From the NCBI GenBank assembly GCA_963714035.1, contig OY970224.1, positions 2,549,831-2,613,830 of the forward strand: a DNA stretch of 64,000 bases. Direction: 5' to 3'. Position 1 is the first letter of the stretch; every line of letters begins with the position of its first letter. Below the pieces are notes generated by a model that had not been told where the DNA came from, searched no databases, and saw nothing but the letters and a program-made list of their open reading frames with translations. Position numbers and translations under genes: made by a program. Origin of the DNA: an uncultured Acidobacteriota bacterium. Its GTDB lineage: Bacteria > Acidobacteriota > Thermoanaerobaculia > UBA5066 > DATFVB01. Shown in pieces: positions 43,932 to 61,664 of the stretch.

Positions 43932-44403
43932 CTCGCAACTCGCCGACTCGCGACTGGTCCTTCGGCATCGTCCGCCCGATCCCGCCGTCCACGGACAACG
44001 GCCCCGGTCCGACGAGCAGCAGGAAGAGTCCGCCCGCGAGCATGCAGAAATCCGTCCGCGCCTCGTGCACCGCCGGCCAGAAGCCGGAATGAACGAGCAT
44101 CGGGATCTTCGTGGTCGCGATAGCGACCGAGATGTCGATCAGCAGCGGAATGACCGCGAGCCGCGTCGCCATGCCGAAGACCACGAGACCGCCGCAGACG
44201 ATCTCGACGAAGCCCACGAACGGCGCCGAAAGGGACGGCACCGGGATCCCGATCTTCGCGAATCGCCCGATTCCGAGCGCGTCGGGGAAGAGGAACTTCT
44301 GGATTCCCTCCGCGAGGAACACCCCGCCGACGAGGAGGCGAACGAGGATCGTGGCGGCCGGGGCGGAATTGTCGAGATCCGATGTTTCGCCGCGCCCGCT
44401 CAT
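43810..44403 (-). CDS. DoxX family membrane protein
   Basis: DoxX-like TM pattern (LVRLLVGGVFLAEGIQKF...). ATGA overlap with the upstream hemerythrin gene. Low-complexity C-terminal tail. Confidence 0.6.
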   Translation of the reverse strand: MSGRGETSDLDNSAPAATILVRLLVGGVFLAEGIQKFLFPDALGIGRFAKIGIPVPSLSAPFVGFVEIVCGGLVVFGMATRLAVIPLLIDISVAIATTKIPMLVHSGFWPAVHEARTDFCMLAGGLFLLLVGPGPLSVDGGIGRTMPKDQSRVGELRVNAFRRPCSNGFSIPSSPTGASARVRRQRREELGLPRSTS

Positions 44404-45119
44404 TTCGGCGGCGCGGGCGCCGTGAACTGCGCCAGGTCCGCGAGCCCCAGCTTCTCCTCGATGTCGGAGATCTTCTTTTCTGCGTCCCCGAACCCGTCGT
44501 GCCCGAACATCCTGTGCTCGATCTCCTCGAACTCGTCTCCCTTTTCGTCGAGCTGCTTGTTCGTGAAGCCCGATTTCCAGGCCGGGAAGACGATCGTGTC
44601 CTCCCGCGCGGCATGGTTCTCGTACATCCGGTCGAGCGCGTCGAAGGCGCCGGCGAGATCCGCGCCGGCCGACGCCGCGACTTTGCCGTTCCGTGTGGTA
44701 GCGAGGATGTACTGCGTGATTTCCCGGCCGCGGCGATGCTGCGCGACGAGGATGTCCGCCGCCGCGGCGGCGCGCCCGCCCCGCTTCTTGACGACCGGGA
44801 AGATGTGCGCTTCCTCGAGGAGCTTCTCGTGGTACTCCTCGCCGAACGTGCGGAAGAGCCGGGCGGCGTCGGCGATCGCCGCCGCGTCGACGCTCGCGGC
44901 GTCGCGGCGCAAACGGACGGCCGATTCCCGGTAGACGAGCAGGACGCGGCGCAGGATGCCGTGCTCGCGCATCAGGTCTTCGGCTGCCGTGACTTCGGGT
45001 TCGTCATCGTCGTTGCCGGTCGCGGTCTTTTTGGGCTCCGTCAGCGCCGGGAGGGTCAGGAAAGCCGCTCCGGCGGCGAGCGAAGAAGCCAGCAGGGATC
45101 GGCGGGAAGAGTGATTCAT
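44400..45119 (-). CDS. Hemerythrin HHE cation-binding domain protein (signal peptide/Tat-like N-terminus)
   Basis: GAAAGGAGC RBS. MNHSSRRSLLASSLAAGAAFLTLPA, then H..E/H motifs (MREHGILRR, EEYHEKLLEEAHIFP, ENHAAREDTIVFP). Confidence 0.65.
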   Translation of the reverse strand: MNHSSRRSLLASSLAAGAAFLTLPALTEPKKTATGNDDDEPEVTAAEDLMREHGILRRVLLVYRESAVRLRRDAASVDAAAIADAARLFRTFGEEYHEKLLEEAHIFPVVKKRGGRAAAAADILVAQHRRGREITQYILATTRNGKVAASAGADLAGAFDALDRMYENHAAREDTIVFPAWKSGFTNKQLDEKGDEFEEIEHRMFGHDGFGDAEKKISDIEEKLGLADLAQFTAPAPPK

Positions 45120-45260
45120 CCGCGCTCCTTTCAACGAGTTCCGGATTGCCTGCAAAAAACGTGCGGAAGGCCCGCGGCGCAGCATCCTGCACCCGGAAAG
45201 GTCGTCATTGCCGAATTTACGCCGACGGCTCTTCTGGCGGACGCGTATAATTTTGCCGTG

Positions 45261-45476
45261 ATGCATCGCTATACGGTGGTTCTCGAACCCGAAACCGACG
45301 GCACCTTCCACGCCTTCGTGCCTGCGTTGAAGGGTTGTCACACGACCGGATCGACTGAAGCAGAAGCTCTCTCCAATGCGGAGGAAGCCATTTCCGTCTA
45401 CCTCGAGAGTCTGACCGCCCGCGGCGAACCGATTCCTGCCGAAGATCTGATCTTTCGCCCCGTCGAAGTGGCGTGA
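45261..45476 (+). CDS. hicB: HicB-like antitoxin (UPF0150 family)
   Basis: MHRYTVVLEPETDGTFHAFVPALKGCHTTGSTEAEALSNAEEAISVYLESL matches HicB N-domain proteins. Confidence 0.7.
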   Translation: MHRYTVVLEPETDGTFHAFVPALKGCHTTGSTEAEALSNAEEAISVYLESLTARGEPIPAEDLIFRPVEVA

Positions 45477-45705
45477 GTCCAAAGAGTCCGCTCGTGACCG
45501 CGGACGAACTCGTCCGCGGTAGTCCGACGACTCGGATTCGAGCTTGATCGGCAGAAAGGGAGTCACGCCGTCTATCGCCGGGAATCCGACAGGGCCCGGG
45601 TCGTCATCGCCATGCACCCCGGTCGGGCCATCCCTCCGAAAACACTGGCGGCTATCCTCGATGACCTGGGCATCTCGGTGGAGGAGCTCAGGAACCTGCT
45701 CTAGG
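45473..45705 (+). pseudogene. hicA: hicA toxin gene interrupted by a single-nucleotide frameshift
   Basis: GTG overlaps the hicB stop. Frame A reads VSPKSPLVTADELVR then stops. Frame +1 continues VVRRLGFELDRQKGSHAVYRRESDRARVVIAMHPGRAIPPKTLAAILDDLGISVEELRNLL (HicA C-terminal motif GSH..). One extra G in CGCGGTAG causes the shift. Confidence 0.6.
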
Positions 45706-46342: not shown

Positions 46343-46703
46343 GGGGGCGAAACGGTTTCGACGGGGTCGCCTGGTCGAAACGTCGCATGCCGAGGTTCAC
46401 TCGCCTCGTAAAATAGGGTGAAAAAAATAGTTGCGAACAGCAACCTCGCACTGGCCGCCTAATTAAAAACTAGGTAATGGTCACGTCCTTCCCGGAGCGC
46501 GCCCATCGCGCTGGAAAAGGGCGTCGCAAACATGGGCTCGTTCGGCAGGGTCCCCCGGCCCGGCCGGAGACACCAATTCGGGGCAGGGTCGGCGCGTTTG
46601 GTTCCTCTTTGAGCGCCGGCCCGAGATCAAAGAGGAACTGAGCATGGAGTGGCGTTCCGTTCCACTTCTCCGGACGCGGGTTCGACTCCCGCCGCCTCCA
46701 CCA
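46343..46703 (+). ncRNA. ssrA: tmRNA (SsrA), tag peptide ANSNLALAA
   Basis: 5' GGGGGCGAAACGGTTTCGACGGGG...GCATGCCGAGG...CTCGTAAAATAGG (tRNA-like domain and PK1 match the E. coli ssrA pattern). Tag reading frame GCGAACAGCAACCTCGCACTGGCCGCCTAA. 3' GGACGCGGGTTCGACTCCCGCCGCCTCCACCA T-arm/acceptor/CCA. Confidence 0.85.
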
Positions 46704-46904
46704 TCCGCCTTCGCCCTGCCAATCGCTGCGCGATTGACGACGCTACGGCGCGATTGAAGAGACCGCCGATGACACCGGAAAGCGAAGGCGGATGTCACGC
46801 CATAGCTCGCCGCCTTCAGCGAAGGCGGAAGACGAGCGACGGCGGACCATCCACCGTCGGCCGCGCGCCACGCTCCGCTGGAACCGCGCGGCCTCCCACC
46901 GCGC

Positions 46905-47700
46905 AATCCTCCTCCGCTCGATTACTTCGCGGAGACTAATCGCGCGGTGACCTCCGCGGCTCGGGCTGAGCCCTCGACCGCTCCGGCGCCCCACCAAAGA
47001 GAGGCACGTCGCGACCTCGCGGAGCTCGGATCGCGAGCTTGCCTCATAGCAGTAGCGCTCGCGGGATATCCAGCGCCTTCCGTCGCTTGGCGACGGAGTT
47101 GCCACGGAGTGGCGGGCGCGCCAGCGCAGGCGCGTCGATCGACAAGCACGCCAGTGTGAAGTCCATCGCCGCGCGATTTCCGCAGCGGCCGCCAAATACA
47201 CGAATACAGGGCCGTCCCCACGCCGATCTCCCCACGCCGATTCAGGACCGCCCCAAAGCCCCGTGACGACAGCGACCGTGCGGCACAACCGCGGAGGGGG
47301 AACCCCAAGGTGCAAAATAAAGATCTGACCCCAGACCTCTCCCGTGACGGTCCCCGCGGCGGGCCTCCCGGCACTCATCGTTCTGGGACTGGCTCTCGCC
47401 GCCGCGGGCGCCGTTCGATTCTCCCGAATCTCCTGATTTCAGCGCTTCCAGGGTGAAGCACCGAAGCCTCTTGCTCGCCAAGGCGACCGGCGCGCTTGGC
47501 GCTGACGCGCCGGCCGCTTCGCGGCTGCGACTCACGTCGCGCGCTGGAATTTCTTCGGCGAGACTTTTCGCGTCGCGACCTCCGCGGCTCGCTTTCTCGG
47601 CTCGACCTCAGCGGTGCCCCACCCACCAAAGAAAGACAACTCGTGACCGCGAAATACATGAAAACAGGGCCGTCCCCAGAGTTCCTCCACATCCCAATTC
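46905..47700. repeat. Repeat-rich spacer (family B copy in reverse orientation at 46915-46995, partial copy ~47570-47625) between ssrA and the low-GC island
   Basis: TTACTTCGCGGAGACTAATCGCGCGGTGACCTCCGCGGCTCGGGCTGAGCCCTCGACCGCTCCGGCGCC is the reverse complement of the family B core. No convincing gene. Confidence 0.5.
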
Positions 47701-48005
47701 CATCCGCCAATTCCATCCTCGGCGTTGGCTTGATCTCAAACCGATTGACACGGCGGGGGCGGCGTGAGGCGAGGGTATTGGATGAGAGACCCGAAAGATG
47801 TGGCGTACGGTGCCCGCCTGCCCCCAAAGTTCACCACTCCCGATGGGAAGGTCGTGGGGTAGGATTTGTCCACAATCTGGGAGGCACGCATGCCCGTCCC
47901 ACAACTGGGTCAGCTGAAGAAGGCCGATCTCCGAACGATGAGGGTCGCGAGATGAGATTAGTTTATGGAACGACTTGGGTCTTAGCCGCCTAGTCTCCTT
48001 AAGAA

Positions 48006-49721
48006 ATGACTGAGCTAGCTTGGGTCGGAAAGAAGGCGGTCGAGAACCATCATCGGGAGGTTCCATACCGACTCCTGAAGTGCGATCCATCGCTCTCCGT
48101 GGGTGACCCGGAGGACGGCAACCTCCTTGTCGAGGGAGACAATCTCGAAGCCCTGAAGGCCTTACTTCCCTTCTATCGCGGCCAGGTCAAGTGCATCTAC
48201 ATCGACCCGCCGTACAACACCGGTCAGGACGAGCGCGACTCCGAAGGGCGCAGGACGGGGTGGATCTATAGCGACAACCTCAATAGCCCAGAGATACGTG
48301 AGTGGCTTGGACGCGTAGTGGGGAGTGAGGCCGACGATCTTTCCCGGCACGATAAGTGGCTCTGCATGATGTATCCAAGACTCTCTCTCCTTAAGGACTT
48401 CCTGCGTTTGGACGGCGCACTCTTCGCCAGCATCGACGAAAATGAGTATGCCAACTTGCGAGCCTTACTCGACGAGATATTTGGAATCAGGAACCGGGTT
48501 GGAACTATCGTGTGGAAGAACGCTACGGACAATAACCCCACAAATATCTCTCTGGAGCACGAGTACGTTCTTTGCTATGCGCGGGACAAGGCCCACCTTC
48601 CTGCGGAGTGGAAGTCAGAAACACTCGCGGTAAAACAGCGGCTCTTGAAGGTCTCGCAAGATTTCCTTGACTCGTTTCCCGACTCGGCTGATCGACAACG
48701 GGCATATTCGACTTGGCTCCGCGACAATAAGGCCTACCTCTGGCCCCTTCAGGACTACAAGTTCATCGACGATGGCGGGGTATTCACTGGGATGCGAGCC
48801 GTGCACAACCCCGGCAAAGAAGGTTACCGATACGACGTCATCCATCCGCGAACCGGCAAGCCATGTGCCCAGCCGTTGATGGGATACCGTTTCCCCGAAG
48901 AAACGATGAAACGACTCCTTGGAGAGGGACGAATTATTTTCGGCGAAGACGAAAGCAAGATCGTCGAACTGAAGGTGTATGTTAAGGAGTACCGGGCGAA
49001 ACTCTCAAGCGTCTTCGAGTTGGACGGTCGCGTGGGGACAAATGAGCTCAAGGAGATCTTTCCAGAGAATCGGCGTCCGTTCGACTTTCCGAAGCCCACA
49101 GCCTTGATCGAGGAACTCATCAGCTTCACGTCGACCGAAGACGATCTTATCCTTGATTCGTTTGCCGGAAGTGGAACCACCGGGCACGCAGTCCTTAAGC
49201 TTAATAAAGCGGATGGAAAGCGCCGCAGGTTCATCCTCGTTGAAATGAAGCCGGAGATCTCGCGTGAAATCACCGCGGAACGCGTGAAGCGCGTCGCTGA
49301 GGGCTACGTTAACGCAAAGGGTGACCGGATCGAGGGCCTGGGGGGTGGCTTCCGATATTGCAGGCTTGGGGACGGGCTCTTTAGTTCGGACGGCCAGATC
49401 ACGGACTCGGTCTCGTTTGCCGATCTTGCACGCCACGTCTTTTTCGTGACGACCGGTCAGCCGTCTCAAAACGGCGGCAAGAAATCCAGCCCGTTCATAG
49501 GTGCCCACGGCGAGACAGCCGTCTACCTCCTCTACAACGGAATACTCGGCGACAGACGACCAGGAAGCGGCAACGTGCTCACTGGAAGGGTTCTAGCAGA
49601 ACTCCCTGAGCATTCTGGCCGGCGAGTGGTTTTCGGGGAGGCAACGACGCTGTCGCGGGCGCGTCTTCGTCGTGAAAACGTCGAGTTCCGGCAGATCCCA
49701 TACGACGTGAGGTCCTGCTAA
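48006..49721 (+). CDS. mod: Type III restriction-modification system methyltransferase (Mod; N6-adenine, beta class)
   Basis: Motif IV IYIDPPYNTG precedes motif I FAGSGTTG. Region GC content visibly lower than flanks. Confidence 0.8.
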   Translation: MTELAWVGKKAVENHHREVPYRLLKCDPSLSVGDPEDGNLLVEGDNLEALKALLPFYRGQVKCIYIDPPYNTGQDERDSEGRRTGWIYSDNLNSPEIREWLGRVVGSEADDLSRHDKWLCMMYPRLSLLKDFLRLDGALFASIDENEYANLRALLDEIFGIRNRVGTIVWKNATDNNPTNISLEHEYVLCYARDKAHLPAEWKSETLAVKQRLLKVSQDFLDSFPDSADRQRAYSTWLRDNKAYLWPLQDYKFIDDGGVFTGMRAVHNPGKEGYRYDVIHPRTGKPCAQPLMGYRFPEETMKRLLGEGRIIFGEDESKIVELKVYVKEYRAKLSSVFELDGRVGTNELKEIFPENRRPFDFPKPTALIEELISFTSTEDDLILDSFAGSGTTGHAVLKLNKADGKRRRFILVEMKPEISREITAERVKRVAEGYVNAKGDRIEGLGGGFRYCRLGDGLFSSDGQITDSVSFADLARHVFFVTTGQPSQNGGKKSSPFIGAHGETAVYLLYNGILGDRRPGSGNVLTGRVLAELPEHSGRRVVFGEATTLSRARLRRENVEFRQIPYDVRSC

Positions 49722-52310
49722 GTGGAGCTCAAGGGCTACCAGTCTCGTTCGCTGGAACGGCTGGGCGACTTCCTTACGAAAGCCAAGGAAAGAAACCCGA
49801 AACTCGCTTTTATTGAGATGACCGAGAGGCCGTATGTAACCGCGGCGCTCCCGGCAGAACTTCGAGATATACCCTACGTCTGTGTGCGCGTCCCGACGGG
49901 CGGTGGAAAGACGTTCATGGCCACTCACGCGATCCCCATCGCGGCAAAGCGATATCTCGAGCGCGAATATCCTCTGACTGTCTGGCTGGCTCCCACAAAT
50001 ACGATCGTCTCTCAAACGCTCCGAGCCTTGAAGAACCCAAGGCATCCTTATCGGCAAGTGTTGGATGGTGCTTTCGCCGGGAACGTTTCGCTTATGACAC
50101 TAGTTGAGGCGCTGTCGGTCACGCCTTCGACGATCGCTGGTAGCGCAACCGTTATCGTGTCAACGCTCGCCGGCCTTAGGACCGAAGACACCGACGGCCG
50201 AAGAGTGTATGAGCAGAACGGTGCTCTTCAGGCCCATTTTTCCGAGCTAACTGCCGGGGAGCGAGCGAGGCTCGAACGAGACGGCGATGGGCTTGCGTCG
50301 ATGAGTCTTGCTAACGTCTTGCGTCTCCACCGCCCGCTCGTAATCGCCGATGAGGCGCACAATGCGCGAACCGCCCTATCCTTCGAGATGTTTAGACGGA
50401 TCGCGCCCGCCGCGATCGTGGAGTTCACGGCGACGCCGGACCAGGAACGGAACCCAAGCAATGTGCTCTGCCATGTCTCCGCCTTAGAACTGAAGGCGGA
50501 GAAGATGATCAAGTTGCCAATTCGGCTCGTGACGCGCGAAGAGTGGCGGGACGCCGTCACTGACGCGATTGGGAAGGTCGAGGGGCTTCAAGAGGCGGCA
50601 AACGAGGTGCAAAGGGAGACCGGGGAATACATCCGTCCGATCGTCCTCCTTCAAGCGCAGCCGAGGAACGAGACGCGGGAAACAGTTACGATCGAAGTTC
50701 TGAAGGCCTCTCTCATCAAGGACTTTCGGGTCCCTGAAGACCAGATTGCGGTAGCGACCGGCGAAACGGACGACCTCCCCGATGACATCCTCGACCCCTC
50801 GTGCCCGGTACGCTTCGTCCTTACGGTACAAAAGCTTCGTGAGGGATGGGATTGCCCGTTCGCCTATGTCCTCTGCAGCGTGTCTCACATCTCAACAGCA
50901 AGGTCGGTTGAGCAGGTGCTGGGCCGGATTCTTCGCATGCCGCGCGCCGAGACCAAGAGCCGGGAAGAACTGAACCGGGCATATGCCTTTGTCACATCCT
51001 CGGATTTCTCCGGAGCGGCCCGATCCCTGGAGGACGCGCTCGTCGAAAGCGGGTTCGAGAGATTTGAGGCTGCAAAAATGATCGAAGGCGGCCCTCCCCC
51101 CCTGTTCCCATTTCCGGAAATCGTCGTCGACGAGGAATTTGAAGAGGCGCCAAGGATCGATCGGCTCTCGGCGAGCCTTCGAAACCGCCTCCGTATCGAA
51201 AATAACCCGTCGGGTTCGGGCGCGCGGGTCGTTTACACAGGCCCAGGCCTGACTGGCCTTGAGGAACGAGAATTGTGCTCGGCAGCTCATGGCGATACCG
51301 GCATGGTGTCTGCGATCAAACTCGCCAGAAAGAGCCGTGGCCAACCAGTCTTTCCCGCTGCGATGGGTGTCGAGCTTTCGATTCCTCAACTTTCGATTCG
51401 CATGGGCAATAGGCTCGAGCTATTTGAGGACCAATTTGCGGGCGTGCCACCCGAACTCGACCCGGAGGATGCGAAGTTGGACGACGACGCCTTCCCTCGA
51501 TACGAAGGGCCAAGACCGGCGCTGGACATCGACATCGACGACCGCGGTTCGGTTGCCGGCTCCGTTCAGTCCGTTGTGTTCGATCGCCCATTGCCGTATT
51601 TTGGTCTCGGTCAGCCGACCCCGGCGGCGCTGGCGGTCTGGCTAGACCGAAACATCCCTCATCCGCTGGTTCCCGCGAGGAAGAGTGAGCCGTTTATGAG
51701 GGAGGTCATCGAATACCTCACAGCTGGGAGAGGCATACCGTTTGAGGAGCTCAAGGCTTCGCAGTTTCGGCTTCGCGACGCCGTTGAGCGTCGGCTGACC
51801 CAGATTCAAGACAAGGCGCGCGGACAGGCTTTCCTTGAGTTTGTTGAGGCAAGCGGGGCGGCCAGCCTCACGGTCGATCCTTCGATCTGTTTCTCGTTTG
51901 ACCGGAATGGCTATCCCGCCAACCAGCTTTACACCGCGACGACGTTCCGAAATCACTACTACGAGCGCCCGGGAGACATGAATGCAGAGGAGGCCAACTG
52001 TGCCCTCACCATCGATTCACTTCGGGAGATTGACGTGTGGGTTAGAAACCTGGAACGGCGGGAGAGGTTTTCTTTTTGGCTTCCGACCTCGACCGATCGC
52101 TTCTATCCCGATTTTGTTGGTCGGTTAAGGGACGGCCGGTTTCTGGTGGTCGAGTACAAGGGCGCTCACCTCATGGACACTTCGGATACCAGAGAAAAGA
52201 AAATGGTCGGCGAGCTGTGGCAGGAAAAGAGTCAGGGAAAATGCCTTTTTCTTCTCGTTGGAGGAGACACCTTGAGTCGGATAGCTCTTGCGGCTCGTTC
52301 TGCCCGGTGA
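49722..52310 (+). CDS. res: Type III restriction endonuclease Res subunit (SF2 helicase-nuclease)
   Basis: GTG start directly after the mod stop. Walker A PTGGGKTF, DEAH-box IADEAHN, helicase C-terminal motifs. Confidence 0.8.
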   Translation: MELKGYQSRSLERLGDFLTKAKERNPKLAFIEMTERPYVTAALPAELRDIPYVCVRVPTGGGKTFMATHAIPIAAKRYLEREYPLTVWLAPTNTIVSQTLRALKNPRHPYRQVLDGAFAGNVSLMTLVEALSVTPSTIAGSATVIVSTLAGLRTEDTDGRRVYEQNGALQAHFSELTAGERARLERDGDGLASMSLANVLRLHRPLVIADEAHNARTALSFEMFRRIAPAAIVEFTATPDQERNPSNVLCHVSALELKAEKMIKLPIRLVTREEWRDAVTDAIGKVEGLQEAANEVQRETGEYIRPIVLLQAQPRNETRETVTIEVLKASLIKDFRVPEDQIAVATGETDDLPDDILDPSCPVRFVLTVQKLREGWDCPFAYVLCSVSHISTARSVEQVLGRILRMPRAETKSREELNRAYAFVTSSDFSGAARSLEDALVESGFERFEAAKMIEGGPPPLFPFPEIVVDEEFEEAPRIDRLSASLRNRLRIENNPSGSGARVVYTGPGLTGLEERELCSAAHGDTGMVSAIKLARKSRGQPVFPAAMGVELSIPQLSIRMGNRLELFEDQFAGVPPELDPEDAKLDDDAFPRYEGPRPALDIDIDDRGSVAGSVQSVVFDRPLPYFGLGQPTPAALAVWLDRNIPHPLVPARKSEPFMREVIEYLTAGRGIPFEELKASQFRLRDAVERRLTQIQDKARGQAFLEFVEASGAASLTVDPSICFSFDRNGYPANQLYTATTFRNHYYERPGDMNAEEANCALTIDSLREIDVWVRNLERRERFSFWLPTSTDRFYPDFVGRLRDGRFLVVEYKGAHLMDTSDTREKKMVGELWQEKSQGKCLFLLVGGDTLSRIALAARSAR

Positions 52311-52357
52311 CATGACGAAGCGCCGCCCCCGCGTGGGCCGGTTACGATAGGTCACCG

Positions 52358-55300
52358 ATGCAAGTCGAGCATTCGGCTCTCCAGCTGTCGGCCTCCGATC
52401 TTGGCCGCTTCCTTTCCTGCCGGCACTGCACAGCGCTCGACGTGGAGGTTGCGGCGGGTACTCGGGCCGCGCCCTTTTTCGCCGATCCGTTCCTCGAAAT
52501 GCTTGCGAAGCGGGGGCTGGAACACGAGAAGAAGTACCTCACCTCGATCAACGATAGCAGTGATAAAGTCCTTAATCTCGCAGGTCTTTCACATGCAGAG
52601 GCCGAAGATCGGTGCCTTGAAGCGATGCAAACAGGACGGAGGGCAATCGCGCAGGGTGTTCTTCGCAGCCGCGAGCTCTTGGGGGTGCCCGACGTCCTCC
52701 AGCGGGTCGAAACCCCCAGCGGTCTCGGTTCGTGGTCCTACGAGGTTTACGACACGAAACTAGCGCGGGAGACACGCGGCACGACCATTCTTCAGCTCTC
52801 GCTTTATTCGGAGCTCCTCGGGGAAACGCAGGGACTCCTTCCGGATAGCTTTCACGTCATCACCCCCAATCCATTGAAGCCGCGTCAATCGTTCCGAGTC
52901 GCGGACTACGCGGCGTTCTACCGATTCGTTCTGCGAGGATTGAAGGAGATGGTCGGTCAAGAGTCATCCAAGCTGCTCGACGCGAACTATCCGGAGCCGG
53001 TCGACTATTGCGACGTTTGCCGCTGGGGAGGCCAGTGCGACAAGCGGCGCCGCAAGGACGACCATCTCTCGCTCGTCGCGGGCATGACGCGGCTCCAGCG
53101 GCGGGAGTTGGAACCGCGCGGCATCATCACGCTCGCGGCATTGGGCCGACTTCCCGTTCCGCTGGCCTTCAAACCTCAACGCGGCTCGAAGGAGTCGATC
53201 GAGCGGGTCTGCAACCAGGCGCGCGTGCAGCTCGAGGAGAGGGAGATCGGAAAGCCCGTGCGGGAGCTGCTCGAGCCGATCGAGGCCGGCCGCGGCCTCG
53301 CAACCCTTCCGCTCCCTTCGATCGGCGATGTCTTCCTCGATCTCGAAGGCGACCACTTTGCGCGCGAGGGCGGACGAGAGTATCTCTTCGGTCTCACGAT
53401 CCTCGAGGCTGGCGGGAGGACGCGACACGTCAAGCTCTGGGGGCATTCGGATACTGAAGAGAAGGCCGCGTTCGAGAAGACCGTGGACGAGATCCTGACT
53501 TCGTGGGCGGCCCACCACCAGATGCACGTCTATCACTACGCTCCGTACGAACCGTCCGCGTTCAAGCGCCTCATGGGCCGGCACGTGACGCGGGGGACGG
53601 ACATCGACAAGATGCTGCGGTCGCGACTCTTCGTAGACCTCTACGCTGTGGTCAGGCAGGGTCTCCGGGCGAGTGTCGAGAAATACTCGATCAAGGATCT
53701 CGAAAAGTTCTACGGCTTCGAGCGCCAGGCGAAGCTTTTCGATGCCGGCGCTGCGCGTCGATTCATCGAGCAAGCGCTCGAGGCTGAGGACCCGGAGAGC
53801 ATTCCGGCTGAAATCCGAACGCTCGTCGAGAACTACAACGAGGAAGACTGCGTGTCGGCTCTCTGGCTGCGGGATTGGCTCGAGAGTCTGCGAAAGGAGC
53901 TCGAAGAGGGGGGCACGGCTGTTCCGCGGCCGCTCCCCGGCGACGGCGAGATTTCGGAAAAGGCGGAGGAGAGAAACGCCGAGGTCCAGGCCGCCATGGA
54001 CGCGCTCCTGGCCGGAGTGCCCGCCGAGAAGAACGAGCGAAGCCGCGAAGAGCATGCGAAGTGGCTGCTCGCCCACATGCTCGAATTTCATCGCCGCGAA
54101 GACAAGGTCACGTGGTGGGAGTTCTTCCGGCTGAGCGACCTCGTGGAAGAAGACGACCTGTTGGACGAGCGGGCCGCCGTCGCCGGATTGGTGTTTGTCC
54201 AGCGACTTCCGCTCAAGGGCAGGGAGAAGACGCCGGTCGATCGTTACACCTTCCCGCCCCAGGAGTTCGAGGCGGACAAGAAAGACAAGCTCTACGTCCA
54301 CGGTGGAACGATGCTCGGCACCGTCGTGGCGTTCGATGCGGCATCCCGTTCGGTGGACGTCAAGAAGACAATAGCCAGCGCCCAAAACCACCCCCGGTCG
54401 GCTTTCATTCATTCCCGGTTTCCTCCCGACACGATGGAAACAGCGCTCATGCGGCTCGCGAGCCAGGTGATCGCTAGCGGACTCGACAGTGTGGCAAGCG
54501 CGGCGCGCGACTTGTTGCTCGGCAACGCTCCGCGTTTGAAGAGCGGGACCCATGCCCGGAAAGACGGCGAGGACCGTGTCGAGTGGGCGAAGCGGACCGT
54601 CCTCGATCTCGATCGTTCCATTCTTCCGATCCAGGGGCCGCCGGGAGCGGGGAAGACTTACACCGGCGCGCGAATGATCCTGGATTGCGTCCGAAATGGC
54701 TTGAAGGTCGGCGTGACGGCCGTGAGCCACAAGGTCATCGAGAATCTGCTCCGAGCCACCCGAAAGGCGGCCGCCGACGCCGGCGTTCCGTGGACGAGCA
54801 TTCGGAAAGTGTCGGATCTGAGCGAGGTGCCCGAGCCCGGGATCGACGAAACGACCGATGCCGCCGAAGTGCGCGCCGCGCTCGACGCCGGCCGCGCCCA
54901 GGTCGGCGCAGGCACCGCCTGGCTCTGGGCGCATGTGGACTTCGCAGACTTCCTCGACGTCCTGTTCGTCGATGAAGCGGGGCAGGCATCGCTCGCAAAC
55001 GTCCTCGCCATGGCGCAGTCGGCAAAGAGTGTCGTTTTGCTGGGTGATCCGCAGCAGCTTCAGCAACCTCAGCGCGGCACGCACCCGGATGGCGTCGATG
55101 CATCGGCTTTGCAGCACCTGCTGGGCGACGAGAAGACGATTCCCGACGAGAAGGGAATCTTCCTTGAAGAGACCTGGCGGCTGGCGCCGTCGATCTGCCG
55201 GTTCACATCCGACCTCTTTTACGAAGACCGGCTCAAACCGAGACCGGGGCTCGATCGGCTCTCGCTCTCAGGCGTACCTCCGTATGAAGGCACCGGCCTG

Positions 55301-55786
55301 TGGTTCGCTCCGGTAGAACACGACGGCAACCGCGATGTGTCGCCCGAGGAAGTGGCCGCCGTCGAGGCCATCGTCGGTCGCCTTCTCGCCGAGGGGAGCG
55401 TATGGACGAACGAGAAGGGCGAGACGAAACCGCTTGGCGCGCGGGACATTCTCGTCGTTGCTCCGTTCAACCGCCACGTCAACCGGCTGCAGGAGGCTAT
55501 CCGCAGCCGCGGCGTGAGCGTCGGCACCGTGGACAAGTTCCAAGGGCAGGAGGCCGCCGTCGTGATCTATTCGATGGCGACTTCGCGCCCGGAGGATGCC
55601 CCGCGTGGAATGGAATTCCTCTATAGCCTCGACCGATTCAACGTCGCCACTTCTCGGGCCCGCTGCGCCTGCATTCTCGTCGCGAGCCCGCGGCTCCTCG
55701 AGCCGGACTGCAAGACGCCTCGTCAGATGCGGTTGACCAACGCCCTCTGCCGGTATGCGGAACTGGCGCACGTGGTCTACTTGTAA
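52358..55786 (+). CDS. Nuclease-helicase fusion: TM0106-type RecB-like nuclease + RNase H-like (YprB-type) 3'-5' exonuclease + SF1 Upf1/Dna2-like helicase
   Basis: N-terminal SASDLGRFLSCRHC (RecB/Cas4-like), Cys cluster YCDVCRWGGQCD, DLEGD exonuclease motif. C-terminal Walker A GPPGAGKT, Walker B VDEAGQ, GDPQQL, VDKFQGQE and ATSRAR motifs. Confidence 0.7.
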   Translation: MQVEHSALQLSASDLGRFLSCRHCTALDVEVAAGTRAAPFFADPFLEMLAKRGLEHEKKYLTSINDSSDKVLNLAGLSHAEAEDRCLEAMQTGRRAIAQGVLRSRELLGVPDVLQRVETPSGLGSWSYEVYDTKLARETRGTTILQLSLYSELLGETQGLLPDSFHVITPNPLKPRQSFRVADYAAFYRFVLRGLKEMVGQESSKLLDANYPEPVDYCDVCRWGGQCDKRRRKDDHLSLVAGMTRLQRRELEPRGIITLAALGRLPVPLAFKPQRGSKESIERVCNQARVQLEEREIGKPVRELLEPIEAGRGLATLPLPSIGDVFLDLEGDHFAREGGREYLFGLTILEAGGRTRHVKLWGHSDTEEKAAFEKTVDEILTSWAAHHQMHVYHYAPYEPSAFKRLMGRHVTRGTDIDKMLRSRLFVDLYAVVRQGLRASVEKYSIKDLEKFYGFERQAKLFDAGAARRFIEQALEAEDPESIPAEIRTLVENYNEEDCVSALWLRDWLESLRKELEEGGTAVPRPLPGDGEISEKAEERNAEVQAAMDALLAGVPAEKNERSREEHAKWLLAHMLEFHRREDKVTWWEFFRLSDLVEEDDLLDERAAVAGLVFVQRLPLKGREKTPVDRYTFPPQEFEADKKDKLYVHGGTMLGTVVAFDAASRSVDVKKTIASAQNHPRSAFIHSRFPPDTMETALMRLASQVIASGLDSVASAARDLLLGNAPRLKSGTHARKDGEDRVEWAKRTVLDLDRSILPIQGPPGAGKTYTGARMILDCVRNGLKVGVTAVSHKVIENLLRATRKAAADAGVPWTSIRKVSDLSEVPEPGIDETTDAAEVRAALDAGRAQVGAGTAWLWAHVDFADFLDVLFVDEAGQASLANVLAMAQSAKSVVLLGDPQQLQQPQRGTHPDGVDASALQHLLGDEKTIPDEKGIFLEETWRLAPSICRFTSDLFYEDRLKPRPGLDRLSLSGVPPYEGTGLWFAPVEHDGNRDVSPEEVAAVEAIVGRLLAEGSVWTNEKGETKPLGARDILVVAPFNRHVNRLQEAIRSRGVSVGTVDKFQGQEAAVVIYSMATSRPEDAPRGMEFLYSLDRFNVATSRARCACILVASPRLLEPDCKTPRQMRLTNALCRYAELAHVVYL

Positions 55787-55875
55787 CACCAACATGACCA
55801 TTAGAAGAACTATGAAGCCAGACTGCACCACGAGTGCGCGCCTCTAGACTGGGAGGAACGGAAAGGAGTGGGAGG

Positions 55876-56580
55876 ATGACGGAATTCTGGGATCCCTTCT
55901 GCGGTTACTATACACAGCCTCTCCTCGAGGTAAATCGTGAAATCGAAAAGTGGAGCACTGAGAATAGCGTCCACAACTATGCCTCGACAACATTGCATTT
56001 TGAGAGAATTCTCGGGAAGCTCGAGGGAGATCGCGCGGGAAGACTGCTTATACTCTTGGAGTCGCCATCCACACCGTTTCCAGTTCAGAGCTGCGACTCA
56101 GATCCACAGGACGAAGGCAACGGAGCATTTCGCTACTTTTGCTTAACTGCTGGTGACTGGGAGATGCTTCGCCTGGAGAAGCTAGGGCCACGACCAAAAT
56201 GGCCGTCGGAATTTGACAATGAAGCGTATTGGGCCGCCTATGCAAGAAGCTTGGCAGACCTTCCGTACAATGGGCTGATTGCGTTCGTGTTATGGCGCCT
56301 CATGCCCGCTGCGGCCTACGTTACGAATCTTTTTAAAAGCCCGAAGGGCCGCGTTCCGGAGAGCTTCTTTGCTAGGGAGTTCGGGTACTTTCGGCCGACG
56401 AAGGTGTTGAGTCTGACGCCGACTTACGTAAAAACTGTCGAGCAGCTGGCGCAGCATCTAGGCAACGCTTTCAGCCTAAAGGAAATCAGATTTGACTATT
56501 CGTGGCATCCTACCTCTCGAAAGAGTTCTGCAGAACGAAGCGGCCGCCTGAAATCAGCCTTAGCCGCCCTCGCGGATTGA
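55876..56580 (+). CDS. Hypothetical protein, low-GC (island cargo)
   Basis: GGGAGG RBS then ATG (MTEFWDPFCGYY...). AT-rich codon usage unlike the host. No recognisable motifs. Confidence 0.5.
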   Translation: MTEFWDPFCGYYTQPLLEVNREIEKWSTENSVHNYASTTLHFERILGKLEGDRAGRLLILLESPSTPFPVQSCDSDPQDEGNGAFRYFCLTAGDWEMLRLEKLGPRPKWPSEFDNEAYWAAYARSLADLPYNGLIAFVLWRLMPAAAYVTNLFKSPKGRVPESFFAREFGYFRPTKVLSLTPTYVKTVEQLAQHLGNAFSLKEIRFDYSWHPTSRKSSAERSGRLKSALAALAD

Positions 56581-56599
56581 TGCGGCGCCTCTGGGGGCG

Positions 56600-57125
56600 G
56601 TCTTCCATTCATTCTCTGGGGCCAGATCCGGGGGCTTCATCAGATCTGTGTTTTCCGCTGTGGGTATCGGGATGATGATGCCCCCGAACTTGTCACCGGG
56701 AGGTCTTGGGGTCAGATCTTTATTATGCATTGAGGTGGATTGGCCAGCCCTTCGGCCGGTATCGCGAACACTGATAAACGATTAGAAGGCCGTCCCCATC
56801 GGGTCCACGCCCCGAAACGCCAGAATGATCGCGCGAGCTATCGCTTCAGCAGAACCCCCGCTCCGGCCAGGAGTGCCGCGAGGAGCAGGTGGCTTAGGGG
56901 TCAGATCTGTGTTTTCCACTATGGCATCGGGACGCGGATTCCCCTACGGATGAGAACTCGCGTCCCATCCAGGCCGGATGTCGACGCATCGCGAACGCTT
57001 AATGATTAGAGGACGGTCCCCGTCGTCCCCATCGGGTCCACGCCCCGAAACGCCCAGAATGATCCCGCGAGCTATCGCTTCAGCAGAATCCCCGCTCCGG
57101 CCAGGAGTGCCGCGAGGGCGATGAG
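56600..57125. repeat. Tandem duplication (~250-bp unit x2) that includes a copy of the 3' end and downstream region of the 57072..57626 gene
   Basis: CCCCATCGGGTCCACGCCCCGAAACGCC.AGAATGATC.CGCGAGCTATCGCTTCAGCAGAA.CCCCGCTCCGGCCAGGAGTGCCGCGAGG occurs at ~56795-56885 and ~57030-57120. Each is preceded by GGGGTCAGATCTGTGTTTTCC.CT.TGG.ATCGGGA. Confidence 0.6.
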
Positions 57126-57626
57126 AGCGACGGGCCTCACCGGCACGCTCATCGGAGGGGCAGGGGTGACGGGCGTTTCGACGGTCGAGGTGTTGTCCGA
57201 CGGATCATCTTCGGTCCCGGAATTCGACACGACCGCCGTATTGAATGTCTCGAGCGGAACGAACTCAGGGAGGATCGTGACCGATAGCGTGAACGTCGCC
57301 GATGCGCCGGTATCCATGTTCTGGAAGCTGCACTGGACCGTTCCGCCCTGGTCGACGGGCGGCGTCGAGCACGCCCATCCGGACGGCGCGCTCAAGGAGT
57401 TGAAGATCGATTTCGTGTCGATGTCGTCGTTCAGGTTGACGGTCGGCGCAAGGGCGCCCGTGTTCGACACGACGATCTGGTAGACGATCGGGACGCCGGG
57501 ATGGGCCGGGCTCGAGGAGAGCAGCGTCTTTACGACCTTCATGTTCGCGGCGTGGAGCGCGGTCGGCGCGGCAGCGATCGAGATTGCGACGATCCCGGCG
57601 GCGACAGCGCGTGGGATGAGGTTCAT
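57072..57626 (-). CDS. Secreted DUF11/conserved-repeat-domain-like protein with C-terminal hydrophobic anchor plus basic tail (sorting-signal-like)
   Basis: GGGAGGA RBS then ATG (MNLIPRAVAAGIVAISIAAAPTALHA signal peptide). C-terminus PVRPVALIALAALLAGAGILLKR resembles PEP-CTERM-type sorting tails without the PEP motif. Confidence 0.55.
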   Translation of the reverse strand: MNLIPRAVAAGIVAISIAAAPTALHAANMKVVKTLLSSSPAHPGVPIVYQIVVSNTGALAPTVNLNDDIDTKSIFNSLSAPSGWACSTPPVDQGGTVQCSFQNMDTGASATFTLSVTILPEFVPLETFNTAVVSNSGTEDDPSDNTSTVETPVTPAPPMSVPVRPVALIALAALLAGAGILLKR

Positions 57627-57837
57627 CGTGATCCTCCCTGTCCGCGGTTGACGATAGCACGACCTCTCGGAACGTCGATGGGGGCGGTTCGTCGTTTCAT
57701 GCATTATTTGCGCAAGACTGGTCTTGCGGTCAGCTGTTCCTGGGGTCAGTTCTTTATTTATGCATTAGCGGAGAAGGATTTGGGCTCAGCCGTGGCTTTG
57801 TTTTTCCCGCGCAACGGGAAACGGGCGCCGGGAGTCG

Positions 57838-59904
57838 TCAAATCGACAGTCCAGCGTCGCCTTCGAGAACCGATGTCTTCAGCTGCGGGCGCTCTCCGCT
57901 CTTCCACATTGCAGCGGTGTGTAATACACGATACCGGAGTGGCCCGCCGTCCGGTTTGTCGCTGCGCTCGATGGGGCGCGGGATGCAGACGAACTCGGTG
58001 CGCATCTCATCGGCCGTCAGCCTTACCTTCGCGTACCCGTGTCCGCCGAGATCGACGAACTCGAGGTGCGGCGCGAGATCCGGGTTGGACAGGGCCCTCG
58101 CGCGCTTCAGGTCGAAGCTCTTCGCATACTCGAGGCACGAACGGACGCCGTGCCGGAGCAGCATGTTGTGGGTCCAGTCCAGCGGCCCCGCCGTCTTGTC
58201 CGCGAGAAACAGCGGTCGGAGCGGAGCGTCCTTCGGGAGATTGTGCTCCTGCGCCTCCATGGTGCCGGCACTGGAGAGAGACGCGCCGACGAAGCTCAAG
58301 CCGACCGGCTCGAACTTGCCGGGGGGAAGCTCGGCGGCCGCATAGCCGGCCCAGAAGCTGTGGAGGTCGCCCGAGACGATGGCGAAGCCCGTGATCTTCG
58401 CGTCGCGAACGAGATTGTAGAGCTCGGCGCGCTCCACGAACGCGGCGCCGTAGTCACCGCCGCCCATGGATGCGTACCCGCCGTCCGCAGGCCAGGCTTC
58501 CCTGGTGAGACCCGGGGGCAGGTTCTGCGGGTCGGCGCGTGGGTCGAGCGTGCCCTCGGAGTTGGCCCAGATCTTCCACGCCGCCGTCGAGCTCCGGAGC
58601 TTCTCCTTGAACCACGCCTTCTGTTCCGCCCCGAGGATCGTCTGCGGCGGCGCGTTCCGTTGCGGGTTGGGAACGTGCGCATCGTTGAAGCGAATTTCCG
58701 CAGGAGGATTGCCGCCGTTGAAGGCGCGCCCGCCGTCCAGGATCCGCATGCCAGACTCGGGAAACATTCCGATGAACTCGTCGCCGCCGAGCTTTTCGAG
58801 CGACGGATCGCTGAAGCAATCCGCGCTGCGATAGCTGTGCTGGTCGGTGATGATCACGTCCAGGTGCCGGCCATAGCGCAGCGCCCGGTAGCCTTTGAGG
58901 CTGTTGATCGCCGTCAGGTTGTTCAGCTCCATCCCCAGCCCGTTGCCGTCGAACTCCTTGATGGGAACACCGTCCTTCACGACGGGCGGACCGAACTGGT
59001 CGAGCGAACCGCTCGGCGGCGCGACGCGCGCGGGGAGGTATTCGAACCAGGCTTGATTCGCCGCGATCTTGACGCTCGGGAGGGGCTGCTCGAACTTTCC
59101 CGCCTTGACAGTGCTCTGCCAGCCTTGCCACGAGAATTCGTGGTTGTCCCACATGGCGACGAACGGCCAGCGCGCGCGAGCGTCCTGGAGGTCGGGATCG
59201 GCGAGATAGCCTTTGTAAACGGCCCGATAGCCGTCGACCGTCAGCGGGAAATGAAAATGGCCAACCTGGCCCCCGTCCGGGATGCGCGCGACCTCATAGA
59301 TCGTGCGGTCGTAGCGTGTCTTGACCTCGTCGGGATACTCGACGACCTCGTAGATGAAATCGCCGAGGTGCAGAACGAAGCCGAGCTGTTCGGCGGCAGG
59401 AGCGCGTTCATCTTCGTAAATCATCCGGCGATAGGCGTTGAGCTTGCCCTCGTTGACGTCCTGACAGCTCACGAACGCGAAGTTCACCGCGCGGGGATCG
59501 TTCGGCAACGGCGCCGTGATCGTGCGGCCGACCCGGCTGCCGTTTCCGTCGGCGTCGGTGAACCGATACCAGTACGTGCGCGCCGGCTCGAGTCCGCCGA
59601 TCAGAACGCGCGCGGTCCAGTCCGAGGCGCTCGAGACCGGCGCCGGCGCGTGCGCAACGACCCGGAGGAAGGCCTCATCCTCGGCGACCTCGACGGTGAG
59701 GATCTCGCGTGTGCCCCGGTCAAACGGATGCCTCGTCCACAGGATGACGCTGTGCGGATCGGGATCGCCCGAGGCGACCCCGTGGGGATAGAGATCACGC
59801 CGCTCCTTCCAATGGACACGCGAACCTCGAGCCGGTTCGACCCAGGCGAACGAGGCCCCGATTGTTGCTGCAGCTTTGAGAAAGGATCGGCGGTTGATCG
59901 TCAT
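57838..59904 (-). CDS. phoD: Alkaline phosphatase PhoD family (Tat-secreted)
   Basis: Twin-arginine signal MTINRRSFLKAAATIGAS. PhoD-like metallophosphatase motifs (GDFIY, WDNHEF). Confidence 0.8.
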   Translation of the reverse strand: MTINRRSFLKAAATIGASFAWVEPARGSRVHWKERRDLYPHGVASGDPDPHSVILWTRHPFDRGTREILTVEVAEDEAFLRVVAHAPAPVSSASDWTARVLIGGLEPARTYWYRFTDADGNGSRVGRTITAPLPNDPRAVNFAFVSCQDVNEGKLNAYRRMIYEDERAPAAEQLGFVLHLGDFIYEVVEYPDEVKTRYDRTIYEVARIPDGGQVGHFHFPLTVDGYRAVYKGYLADPDLQDARARWPFVAMWDNHEFSWQGWQSTVKAGKFEQPLPSVKIAANQAWFEYLPARVAPPSGSLDQFGPPVVKDGVPIKEFDGNGLGMELNNLTAINSLKGYRALRYGRHLDVIITDQHSYRSADCFSDPSLEKLGGDEFIGMFPESGMRILDGGRAFNGGNPPAEIRFNDAHVPNPQRNAPPQTILGAEQKAWFKEKLRSSTAAWKIWANSEGTLDPRADPQNLPPGLTREAWPADGGYASMGGGDYGAAFVERAELYNLVRDAKITGFAIVSGDLHSFWAGYAAAELPPGKFEPVGLSFVGASLSSAGTMEAQEHNLPKDAPLRPLFLADKTAGPLDWTHNMLLRHGVRSCLEYAKSFDLKRARALSNPDLAPHLEFVDLGGHGYAKVRLTADEMRTEFVCIPRPIERSDKPDGGPLRYRVLHTAAMWKSGERPQLKTSVLEGDAGLSI

Positions 59905-60206
59905 TGTCTCACTCCGTCGGCGTTCGCAACGCCGTGGGCCGCGGGTACGGGCATCGGTGTCTCGTGCGACCTTCGTGACCGCCCTGCAGGATCGGTGAGT
60001 GGGCCAAAAGGATCGCGGCGATGACTCCGTAGCGCGTCATGCCCGGCAGAATACGCCGTTCATCGCTCCGGCAAAAGATCATTCGTCGTATTCGTGGCGT
60101 TACGCCTCACTAACGACTTGAAAGAGCAATTTTCTATCAAAGTTATGGTTCAGGCCGCGGCGGACCGGGGGCGGTCCTATGTTTTAAATGTTCGCGAAGG
60201 CCGGGC

Positions 60207-61664
60207 TCATTTGAGATAAATCGCGCCGCTGATCGCGCCTCCCAGGTCACCCAGCTTGCCACCCTCTCTCTTGTGTCCGGTAATGTCGATCGAGCCCCTG
60301 GGCCCGCCATGACATGTGAGGCACGATGCTTCGTAGTATTCGGGGATCAGCACGCGATACGCTCGTTTGCCGTCGAGCAGGGCTTCCTGCTCTACGAACC
60401 GGCCCTTTGCCCAGGTCCCGGACAGAAAATTTCTTTTGATGATGCGATCTTCCCAGTCATCCGGCAAGTTCGAGGGGTGGCGAACCAGCTCCGACGGCGC
60501 GGTCAATTTCAAATAGCTGATCTTTCCGACTTTCCGGTTGAAGCGTTCCGCCACGCGGTACGCGAAGACCGCGGGAAGAAATCCCTTGAAGCCGCGTTTT
60601 GGATCGTTGATGAGCGGCTGCGCCTCGTCCATGACCTCTTGCATCGCGTCCAGCTCGGATTGAAGCATTTGCCCTTCCGAGGAGGTCGGATCGAGATTGG
60701 GAACGGGGTGGCCGGTCTGCTCGGCATATTTCGCTGTCGCCTGCTCGATCAGCTTCCGGGCGCTCAAAGCTTTGCCCGTCCCCGGTTGGTTGATGAGATC
60801 CTGCTGATCGGAAATGACCTGACGGGCCGAACGCAGCAGGGTCGTCAGATGGACGAGTACGGAGTGGTCGATTTCGTCCTGACCGGCCGCTTCCTCCGGC
60901 ATGACCTGGTTGAGCAGGTCCGGTTTCACGGAAACCGCTCCGCTGAAGGGGCGGTCGTGTGAGGCGATCAGCAGAATCGACACCGCGACTCCGGTCGCGA
61001 AAATCGTCATTGCCGCGGCGGCGCCGCCGCGATTGTCGCTGTGGACCATGGCGATCGCGGTCAACGTGCAGATCGCTTGCAGGAGGAGCGCGGCCCATTT
61101 GACCCAACTGACCCTCGACCGGCTGATGATGATTCGCTGGCCGCGGGCATCGATCGCGTTTTCGAGCGCGCTCACGATGTCGCGCTGCGCCGTGATCTGT
61201 CCTTCGCTGTGGGGCGTGACGGCCAGGATCGATTGCAGCGCCTCGGCGAGCGAAAGCGGCGTGATCCTCAGGGACGCCGATTGTTGCGCCATTCTGGGCC
61301 ATTCGTACGCCACGGCTTCCTGAATATGGCGACGAGTCAGGTCGCGCAACCGCGTTTCCGGCTCTCCCGGAAAGCTGGCCGACAGAAGGACCACCGTGCT
61401 CAGCGCGTTGGCTTCCCTGTTGACGGCCGCCTTCGCGCGATCGATGTCGTTCCAGACCTGAGCGGCGACAAACGCGACGAACAGGCCGAAGATGATGCCC
61501 AGGGGAGGAAGCATCCCCGTGGACACTCCTTTGAACGCCCGGCCCCGCTCCCCGGTCGCGAGACGCATGACGACGGCGAAGATTCCCCACGTCCCAAGAT
61601 AAGTGACGGCAAAGGTCGCGAGAGCCATGACACCCAGCGGGAGGTTGTAGAGCCATTCGCTCAA
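60207..61664 (-). CDS. Membrane protein with N-terminal DUF4239-like TM domain and C-terminal CxxCH (c-type haem-binding-like, DUF3365-like) domain
   Basis: Hydrophobic N-terminus. C-terminal YYEASCLTCHGGPRG motif. Confidence 0.5.
   Translation of the reverse strand: MSEWLYNLPLGVMALATFAVTYLGTWGIFAVVMRLATGERGRAFKGVSTGMLPPLGIIFGLFVAFVAAQVWNDIDRAKAAVNREANALSTVVLLSASFPGEPETRLRDLTRRHIQEAVAYEWPRMAQQSASLRITPLSLAEALQSILAVTPHSEGQITAQRDIVSALENAIDARGQRIIISRSRVSWVKWAALLLQAICTLTAIAMVHSDNRGGAAAAMTIFATGVAVSILLIASHDRPFSGAVSVKPDLLNQVMPEEAAGQDEIDHSVLVHLTTLLRSARQVISDQQDLINQPGTGKALSARKLIEQATAKYAEQTGHPVPNLDPTSSEGQMLQSELDAMQEVMDEAQPLINDPKRGFKGFLPAVFAYRVAERFNRKVGKISYLKLTAPSELVRHPSNLPDDWEDRIIKRNFLSGTWAKGRFVEQEALLDGKRAYRVLIPEYYEASCLTCHGGPRGSIDITGHKREGGKLGDLGGAISGAIYLK

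Follow-up and report, generated by a model that had tools for sequence, protein, structure and literature searches.

A defence island probably assembled from separate modules downstream of ssrA in a Thermoanaerobaculia-like acidobacterium

In the stretch of DNA analysed here, a 64-kb window from a Thermoanaerobaculia-like acidobacterium, the interval at ~47.04–56.8 kb, downstream of the transfer-messenger RNA (tmRNA) gene ssrA, is probably a defence island that was pieced together from three or more modules, each circulating independently, in a recombination-prone and repeat-littered region, rather than one integrase-borne element. The modules are a Type III restriction-modification (R-M) cassette of mod and res, a COG2251-type nuclease-helicase gene and a gene for a small protein predicted to have the uracil-DNA glycosylase (UDG) fold. 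Piecewise construction in a plastic region is favoured because the cargo that follows ssrA differs among relatives and because synteny with the closest relative breaks ~335 bp past ssrA. The block had been put forward in a preliminary description as one single insertion, which is not supported, as the three modules differ in composition and each of them is found elsewhere without the other two. All coordinates are positions in the window unless a comparison locus is named, and the labels L001–L057 denote loci fetched for comparison (relatives, metagenome loci and a Logan contig).

The four genes, mod, res, the nuclease-helicase gene and the 234-aa UDG-fold gene, span 48006–56580 and all lie on the + strand (4/4), as had been noted before, in an operon-like arrangement. 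Composition was scored against the 33 other window genes, whose GC content at third codon positions (GC3) has a mean of 0.820 and a standard deviation (SD) of 0.049. By this measure mod (GC3 0.67, z −3.0; codon-usage z −3.4), res (GC3 0.66, z −3.3; codon-usage z −3.7) and the 234-aa gene (GC3 z −4.9; codon-usage z −6.2) are anomalous, and the nuclease-helicase gene (GC3 0.77, z −0.9; codon-usage z −1.2) is not distinct from the host, so that the anomaly, though real, affects three genes out of four and is uneven over the block. The low-GC block described earlier thus stands for mod, res and the 234-aa gene (z −3 to −6) and falls for the nuclease-helicase (z ~−1). Overall GC content is 0.679 upstream (1–46342), 0.576 in mod-res (48006–52310), 0.634 in the nuclease-helicase gene (52358–55786), 0.534 in the last gene (55834–56580) and 0.639 in the right remainder of the window (57072–64000), where the immediate neighbours, the DUF11 and PhoD genes, are host-like (GC3 0.82–0.83).

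Relatives were retrieved via the amidase gene upstream of ssrA and are acidobacterial metagenome-assembled genomes (MAGs). Amidase–ssrA synteny is kept in five loci (L002, L003, L004, L006 and L026), with 2.8–9.1 kb of sequence beyond ssrA, in none of which the window's right-flank genes are reached. Over this length none of the five (0/5) carries mod, res, the nuclease-helicase, the UDG-fold gene, DUF11 or PhoD after ssrA, and the cargo that does follow differs from locus to locus: terminase, Mom and an SLFN/NB-ARC protein in L002, GT87 and toxin-antitoxin genes in L003 and L004, and a low-GC stretch in L006, the closest relative (amidase 80% identical), where an HNH endonuclease and an IS200-like Y1 transposase are encoded. 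Together with the composition scores, the absence of the block from the ssrA locus of all five bears out the earlier view of a defence island of foreign composition. The segment 46846–47036 resembles L006 5474–5280, directly after the L006 ssrA, at 81% identity, and its 3' extension is common to the two ssrA-adjacent copies only, with the caveat that the segment in common is a member of a family of dispersed repeats. Homology between window and L006 is lost at ~47040, ~335 bp beyond ssrA, after this ~190-bp repeat element. The block had also been placed immediately 3' of ssrA, which had to be revised, since it starts 1.3 kb off and L006 synteny persists to ~47040. Exact-protein look-ups of Mod, PhoD and DUF11 returned nothing on record, those of the nuclease-helicase and Res returned solely an identical 8.6-kb Logan contig (L001), which ends at window position 56820 within the right-border repeat, and no strain with an empty site came from these look-ups.

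These data also bear on a reading in which the genes are ancestral to the locus and the lower GC reflects gene-specific composition or normal variance, which the preliminary description had named as the outcome that would overturn it. The nuclease-helicase lies within host variance and the right third of the window is of lowish GC throughout, as this reading would have it, but mod, res and the UDG-fold gene depart from host genes by 3–6 SD in GC3 and codon usage, the same genes are absent after ssrA in every syntenic relative, and Res homologues are patchily distributed, with identity falling from 75% to ≤51%. We therefore give an ancestral origin next to no credence.

The first module is the R-M cassette. 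The mod gene (48006–49721, +) encodes a 571-aa Type III methyltransferase of the beta-class N6-adenine type, as evidenced in matches to PADLOC MTase_III (5.9e-169, residues 1–569) and Pfam N6_N4_Mtase (1.3e-33) and in the order of its motifs, DPPY (residue 67) preceding FAGSG (386). The co-oriented res gene (49722–52310, +) begins with a GTG at 49722, directly after the mod stop codon ending at 49721, and encodes an 862-aa restriction subunit matching PADLOC REase_III over residues 44–846 (1.7e-135) and also Pfam ResIII, with the motifs PTGGGKT, DEAH at 210 and a C-terminal PD...EYK at ~796–813. By gene identity, mod-res is an intact Type III cassette, its predicted activity following from family membership, and it is clearly foreign. 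The nearest other Res homologue shares 75% protein identity and the remaining homologues ≤51%, the few matches with a taxon label being assigned to Acidobacteria, Planctomycetota, Armatimonadetes and Brocadiia; in contrast, the 120 listed PhoD clusters are all ≥82% identical. The 75% cassette was found in L055–L057, beside a KAP NTPase, where similarity to the window (72% nucleotide identity) is limited to 48021–52231 and no nuclease-helicase follows res within the 0.6 kb to the contig end.

The second module, the nuclease-helicase gene (52358–55786, +), starts 47 bp past res on the same strand. Its 1142-aa product is of the COG2251/TM0106 type and matches TIGR03491 over residues 11–508 (3.4e-65; 220.8 bits against a curated cutoff of 97.45), with further matches to RNase_H_2, AAA_11, AAA_12 and AAA_30. 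A Cas4-like PD-(D/E)xK nuclease with a Cys cluster, a PolB-like 3'-5' exonuclease (RNase_H_2, PF13482) and a superfamily 1B (SF1B) Upf1/Dna2-like helicase are joined in it, the characteristic motifs being CDVCRWGGQC at 218 (CxxCx5C), GPPGAGKT at 760 and DEAGQ at 872, and comparison with the PDB showed that the helicase resembles IGHMBP2, Upf1, Sen1 and Dna2. Membership in Mokosh, Nhi, Hachiman or Dpd was considered and rejected, as the PADLOC matches are confined to the helicase region, mostly its C-terminal half (MkoA/MkoC at residues 867–1130, DpdJ at 758–1116); no partner genes of Mokosh, Dpd or other PADLOC 2.0 helicase-nuclease systems are present.

The genomic company of this protein was surveyed in 14 metagenome loci with homologues of 48–71% identity, none of which (0/14) carries the window's UDG-fold gene and only one of which, L041, carries a Mod, a distant one (30%). 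A Type I hsdM lies downstream of the homologue in L031, L034 and L035, genes for SNF2, PLD, Mod and Res lie downstream of it in L041, and upstream of it in L035, L036, L038 and L041 there is a gene for a WYL-WCX regulator. The order WYL-WCX, COG2251 nuclease-helicase, R-M (Type I, or SNF2 with PLD and Type III) recurs in L035 (7577–22262), L036, L038 and L041 (7841–22596), sometimes with a Fic or Xre-type gene intervening. A Peptidase_S24 domain is present at the C-terminus of the L035 HsdR. In two loci, L031 (4964–5056) and L032 (1–72), a short fragment corresponding to residues 6–36 of the nuclease-helicase precedes the intact gene by ~2.5 kb, with small open reading frames (ORFs) between the two, an arrangement that suggests an insertion or duplication at the 5' end of the gene. 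A scan of viral contigs gave no relatives of this protein.

The third module is the last gene of the block (55876–56580, +), which is preceded by a GGAGG ribosome-binding site and encodes 234 aa, or 248 aa with the GTG at 55834 taken as the start. The identities given previously for mod, res and the 1142-aa nuclease-helicase are confirmed; the 'hypothetical' label of this fourth gene is replaced, as its product is a protein of predicted UDG-superfamily fold from a rare, unannotated family. Searches of Pfam, NCBIfam, PADLOC and PDB sequences gave no match for the protein itself, and an exhaustive HMMER search of 1.84 billion representative proteins yielded 30 relatives at E ≤ 1e-3. Among 26 aligned family members, 20 touch the UDG family PF03167 (best E 3.6e-07), the family-4 UDG 1ui0 is aligned with the family profile at its ITNxxKC region, and an AlphaFold2 model built with the family alignment is confident (pLDDT 89, pTM 0.89), so that the alpha/beta UDG fold is predicted for the protein on the grounds of modelling and family profile. 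The family consensus reads LFQDPR ... ITNxAKC ... HPAAR, and the window's protein reads LLESPS ... VTNLFKS ... HPTSR, with the Asn, His and Pro kept. Relatives were seen in three contexts (a housekeeping region, beside an IS3-type transposase, and among hypothetical genes), and at these three loci they are linked neither to R-M nor to the nuclease-helicase. Neither a scan of viral contigs for family members nor a Foldseek comparison with viral structures gave a significant match.

Two UDG-fold anti-phage enzymes, Brig1 (PMC11078745) and Brig2 (10.1101/2025.10.29.685425), have been described, and they reside in defence islands beside restriction systems. The Brig1 sequence, as given in the supplement of that paper (PMC11078745), was compared with the family profile by hhalign, which gave a probability of 0.2% and an E-value of 0.34, that is, no detectable sequence relationship.

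The ssrA gene upstream of the block (46343–46703, +) is complete, as had been stated, with the tag peptide ANSNLALAA; it was recovered by ARAGORN and by Rfam RF00023 (190 bits, model positions 1–374) and is 89–93% identical to ssrA of L002–L006 and L026. It is followed by the repeat-rich, gene-poor stretch that had been described, measured here as the 1302 bp between ssrA and mod (46704–48005), which consists largely of dispersed and local repeats and whose ORFs have no Pfam or NCBIfam match. The gene ssrA is a classical target of islands and prophages, and the block begins 1.3 kb from it, so one may suppose that a single island was integrated at the ssrA 3' end by a tyrosine or serine integrase and that the integrase and attR decayed later. 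The terminase and Mom genes directly after ssrA in L002, and the divergence of all relatives 0–15 nt from the ssrA end, also speak for this. On the other side, domain scans found no recombinase in the ORFs of 46.5–57.1 kb, the 26-mer of the ssrA 3' end, searched with up to 3 mismatches, matched only itself, and the last 70 nt of ssrA gave, in the 17.3 kb downstream, a best same-strand partial match of 10 nt, which is at chance level; on this absence of a recombinase and of an ssrA 3'-end repeat, the earlier and the present work agree. The five relatives likewise have no integrase beside ssrA within their 2.8–9.1 kb and no ssrA-end repeat, the synteny break falls at ~47040, behind an element held in common with L006, and the three modules are of differing composition and occur separately elsewhere. 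We consider integration of one island at ssrA unlikely, and nothing positive was found for the old, decayed or non-canonical ssrA insertion that had been proposed.

Two candidates for an attachment-site (att) remnant were also discarded. A degenerate repeat of the ssrA end at 46807–46822 (13/16) and the microrepeat ACCATCC (46699 and 46848) were both rejected, as ~2 such matches are expected by chance according to our own estimate and as the intervening 142 bp are part of a repeat also present near 25.9 kb.

The variability of the ssrA-downstream region must further be seen against the general state of gene order in this clade. The PhoD gene at the right of the island (57838–59904) retains 87–93% nucleotide identity across relatives (L045, L046 and L047) and sits in four different contexts, its neighbourhood differing in each of the three relatives; homology to the closest of them ends 30 bp past the stop codon, at window position 57808. 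Gene order is generally fluid in the clade, as PhoD exemplifies, and therefore a variable region next to ssrA is weak evidence for integration targeted to ssrA.

The DNA at the island borders is rich in repeats, and two lineage-specific repeat families account for it. The first occurs in the composite dispersed repeat that abuts ssrA (46704–47040, +) and holds a ~146-nt structured, REPIN-like element at 46855–46999. Further full copies lie in the window at 26094–26238 and 29468–29612, partial copies at 47549–47623 and 26023–26075, and two full copies in L006 (5316–5460 and 14812–14958); over ~810 kb of fetched sequence the element is confined to the window and this closest relative. RNAalifold folded it into a long hairpin of 33 predicted pairs, 9 of them with compensatory double changes, and no credible Rfam family (E ≤ 1) was found for the repeat zone or the element, which may represent a small structured RNA or be REPIN-like.

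The second family is a motif with the core GGGGTCAGATCT and an AT-rich tail, which occurs in the window at 47321, 56708, 56897 and 57742. All four copies lie ≤1.2 kb from the four-gene block (chance expectation 0.48). In its longer form, gtcacNggagaggtctGGGGTCAGATCTttattttgca, it resembles a terminal inverted repeat (TIR), the left copy (47311–47348, −) pointing away from the island and being the inverted partner of 56692–56729; this 38-nt pair brackets the four genes and is 79% identical without gaps (blastn 90% over 39 columns). The left copy lies in a border zone without a recognisable gene (47041–48005), which also contains a local duplication of ~630-bp period (46921–47220 resembling 47549–47678). 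The right border zone (56581–57071) holds a degenerate relative of the motif (56627–56684) and TIR-like copies at 56692–56729 and 56888–56924. A 93-bp duplication on this side (56791–56883 and 57024–57117; blastn 96.8% over 94 bp) comprises the 15 codons at the 3' end of the DUF11 gene, which encode a hydrophobic C-terminal tail, and 48 bp beyond that gene, so that a gene-end fragment lies in the border zone. Beside every window copy of the core the neighbouring DNA is duplicated in tandem, the periods being ~122, 233 and 630 bp. Neither border yielded a promoter or terminator prediction exceeding the shuffled expectation.

In L006 the same core is found at 1216, 1338 and 2338, and the Y1 transposase gene downstream of ssrA is enclosed by perfect 22-bp inverted repeats that it forms; this IS200-like transposase is fused to a DnaA_C-type helix-turn-helix. 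It is thus conceivable that the owner of the GGGGTCAGATCT motif, an IS200-like Y1 (RAYT-like) transposase system, mobilised the block or rearranged the locus, with its ends bracketing the island, and the inverted pair around the four genes, the crowding of the copies at the block and the local duplication that accompanies each copy could all be read in this way. The window copies, however, are solo and face outward, opposite to the arrangement around the L006 Y1 gene, extra copies in the same orientation lie at 56897 and 57742, no Y1 transposase homologue was found in the window (tblastn best E 0.41), and the motif gave no convincing hairpin. No Y1 transposase (IS200/IS605, REP/RAYT) is known to carry a 9-kb cargo between inverted ends. 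Such a vehicle is accordingly judged very unlikely, and the border repeats are taken to mark a zone prone to recombination rather than to be a demonstrated vehicle of the island.

Some further features of the locus and its relatives were recorded. The first gene outside the island at the right is the DUF11-domain gene (57072–57704, −; Pfam DUF11 2.2e-09), with a GC3 of 0.82 and a codon score of 0.30, within the host range. A 97%-identical bestrophin-like gene (window 60207–61664) follows PhoD in L045 and precedes it in the window on the same strand, which indicates local gene shuffling. Between amidase and ssrA, the window contains a hemerythrin-domain gene (44400–45617, −) and a short HicB-like antitoxin gene (~45270–45476, +). 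The amidase–ssrA spacer is ~3.2 kb in the window and L006 and much shorter in L002–L004, and therefore the upstream side of ssrA varies too. In L002, the SLFN/NB-ARC gene (596–3892), beside terminase and Mom, encodes a protein of 1098 aa in which SLFN/AlbA_2, Big_7 and, weakly, NB-ARC were matched, and may be a defence gene resembling nucleotide-binding leucine-rich repeat (NLR) genes at the equivalent site. One MAG, MFD05513.bin.1.255, contributes three separate amidase–ssrA contigs (L003, L004 and L026), of which L003 and L004 have 15 nt in common after ssrA and then diverge, with L026 following L003; this reflects a mixed bin or heterogeneity among strains at this site.

Several points weigh against a defence island assembled from separate modules, and they concern its boundaries, its history and its function. 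The right flank (DUF11 and PhoD) is syntenic in no relative examined and no empty site was recovered, and therefore the right boundary is drawn from composition alone. The proximity of ssrA and the prophage genes of L002 are compatible with an ancient integrase-mediated event. The nuclease-helicase is host-like in composition and could predate the arrival of the R-M cassette, and its association with R-M genes amounts to ~7 independent loci within one clade of close homologues. The window's own UDG-fold protein falls short of PF03167; it has E-S-P in place of the family Q-D-P and is without the family cysteines, because of which it could be catalytically altered. Since its homologues occur in housekeeping or nondescript neighbourhoods, the family may be one of repair enzymes and not of defence genes. 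The defence activities of all four proteins are, finally, predictions drawn from sequence, fold and neighbourhood.

Assembly from separate modules nevertheless remains the reading that we prefer, and a working scheme can be drawn from it. Acquisition would most likely have proceeded by recombination into the plastic intergenic zone. In the first module, judged from its family, Mod would methylate one strand of an asymmetric site and thereby mark the host DNA, and Res would cleave incoming DNA that lacks methylation, once sites have communicated in an ATP-dependent manner. In the second, the COG2251 protein may be a defence-associated, ATP-driven processor of DNA ends, analogous to Dna2/AddAB, that degrades or processes foreign DNA, a role proposed because of its architecture and its repeated placement by R-M genes and WYL (BrxR-type) regulators elsewhere. 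In the third, the UDG-fold protein may act as a DNA glycosylase that removes an unusual or modified base from the invader, as do Brig1 and Brig2, and would so cover phages that evade R-M through base modifications.

The cluster as a whole is an ordinary kind of defence island, a routine example in a variable chromosomal region, and it carries the caution that proximity to tmRNA and low GC alone do not indicate an integrase-borne island. Its components that may be of most value are the orphan UDG-fold gene and the R-M/WYL-associated COG2251 nuclease-helicase. We put forward only tentatively that the former founds an undescribed family of anti-phage glycosylases, acting as Brig1 or Brig2 do though unrelated to Brig1 in sequence, and/or that the latter is an unrecognised defence effector, typically controlled by BrxR-type WYL regulators and working alongside R-M, for example by the processive destruction of restriction-cut DNA. 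If the UDG-fold family is anti-phage, it would enlarge the still small class of DNA glycosylases that were recently found to act against phages; the COG2251 family is widespread, and its repeated siting between WYL regulators and R-M genes supplies a concrete functional hypothesis for it.

Compared with known systems, the mod-res cassette resembles the Type III R-M systems of the EcoP15I/EcoPI type in the order of mod then res with the res start abutting the mod stop, in its DPPY beta-class methyltransferase, in the full-length PADLOC Type III matches, and in the superfamily 2 ATPase motifs and C-terminal PD-(D/E)xK nuclease of Res. Its relationship to the enterobacterial enzymes is distant (29.7 bits with NCBIfam PRK15483, whose cutoff is 564), and here, unlike in those systems, two more same-strand genes trail res. 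The nuclease-helicase has the same domain architecture as the COG2251/TIGR03491 helicase fusions of PMC3985635 (family F.13), in which a DUF83-type PD-(D/E)xK nuclease, a PF13482 exonuclease-like domain and a tandem AAA helicase are combined and which were described there as uncharacterised. It recalls Dna2 in joining a cysteine-cluster nuclease to an SF1B helicase, yet its similarity to Dna2 is confined to the helicase C-terminus. Like Brig1 and Brig2, the protein of the last gene is a small single-domain product with a predicted UDG-superfamily fold that was labelled hypothetical, and its gene lies in a low-GC defence island adjoining a restriction system; it differs in that it is unrelated in sequence (Brig1 being the one compared) and in that other members of its family occur outside obvious defence contexts.

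The border repeats are like REP/REPIN sequences and their RAYT (IS200-like Y1) transposases insofar as short lineage-specific repeats accumulate in intergenic DNA, one type flanking the L006 Y1 gene in inverted orientation and the other forming a ~146-nt hairpin with compensatory changes; they are unlike them in that the window is without a Y1 gene and the island-edge motif without a clear hairpin. From the defence islands and hotspots adjacent to tRNA or tmRNA genes, the locus is set apart by having no integrase and no att duplication, by a junction that lies ~335 bp past the ssrA end, and by modules that differ in composition and occur separately elsewhere. What it has in common with them is a defence cluster of foreign composition at ssrA, at a site whose cargo differs among relatives.

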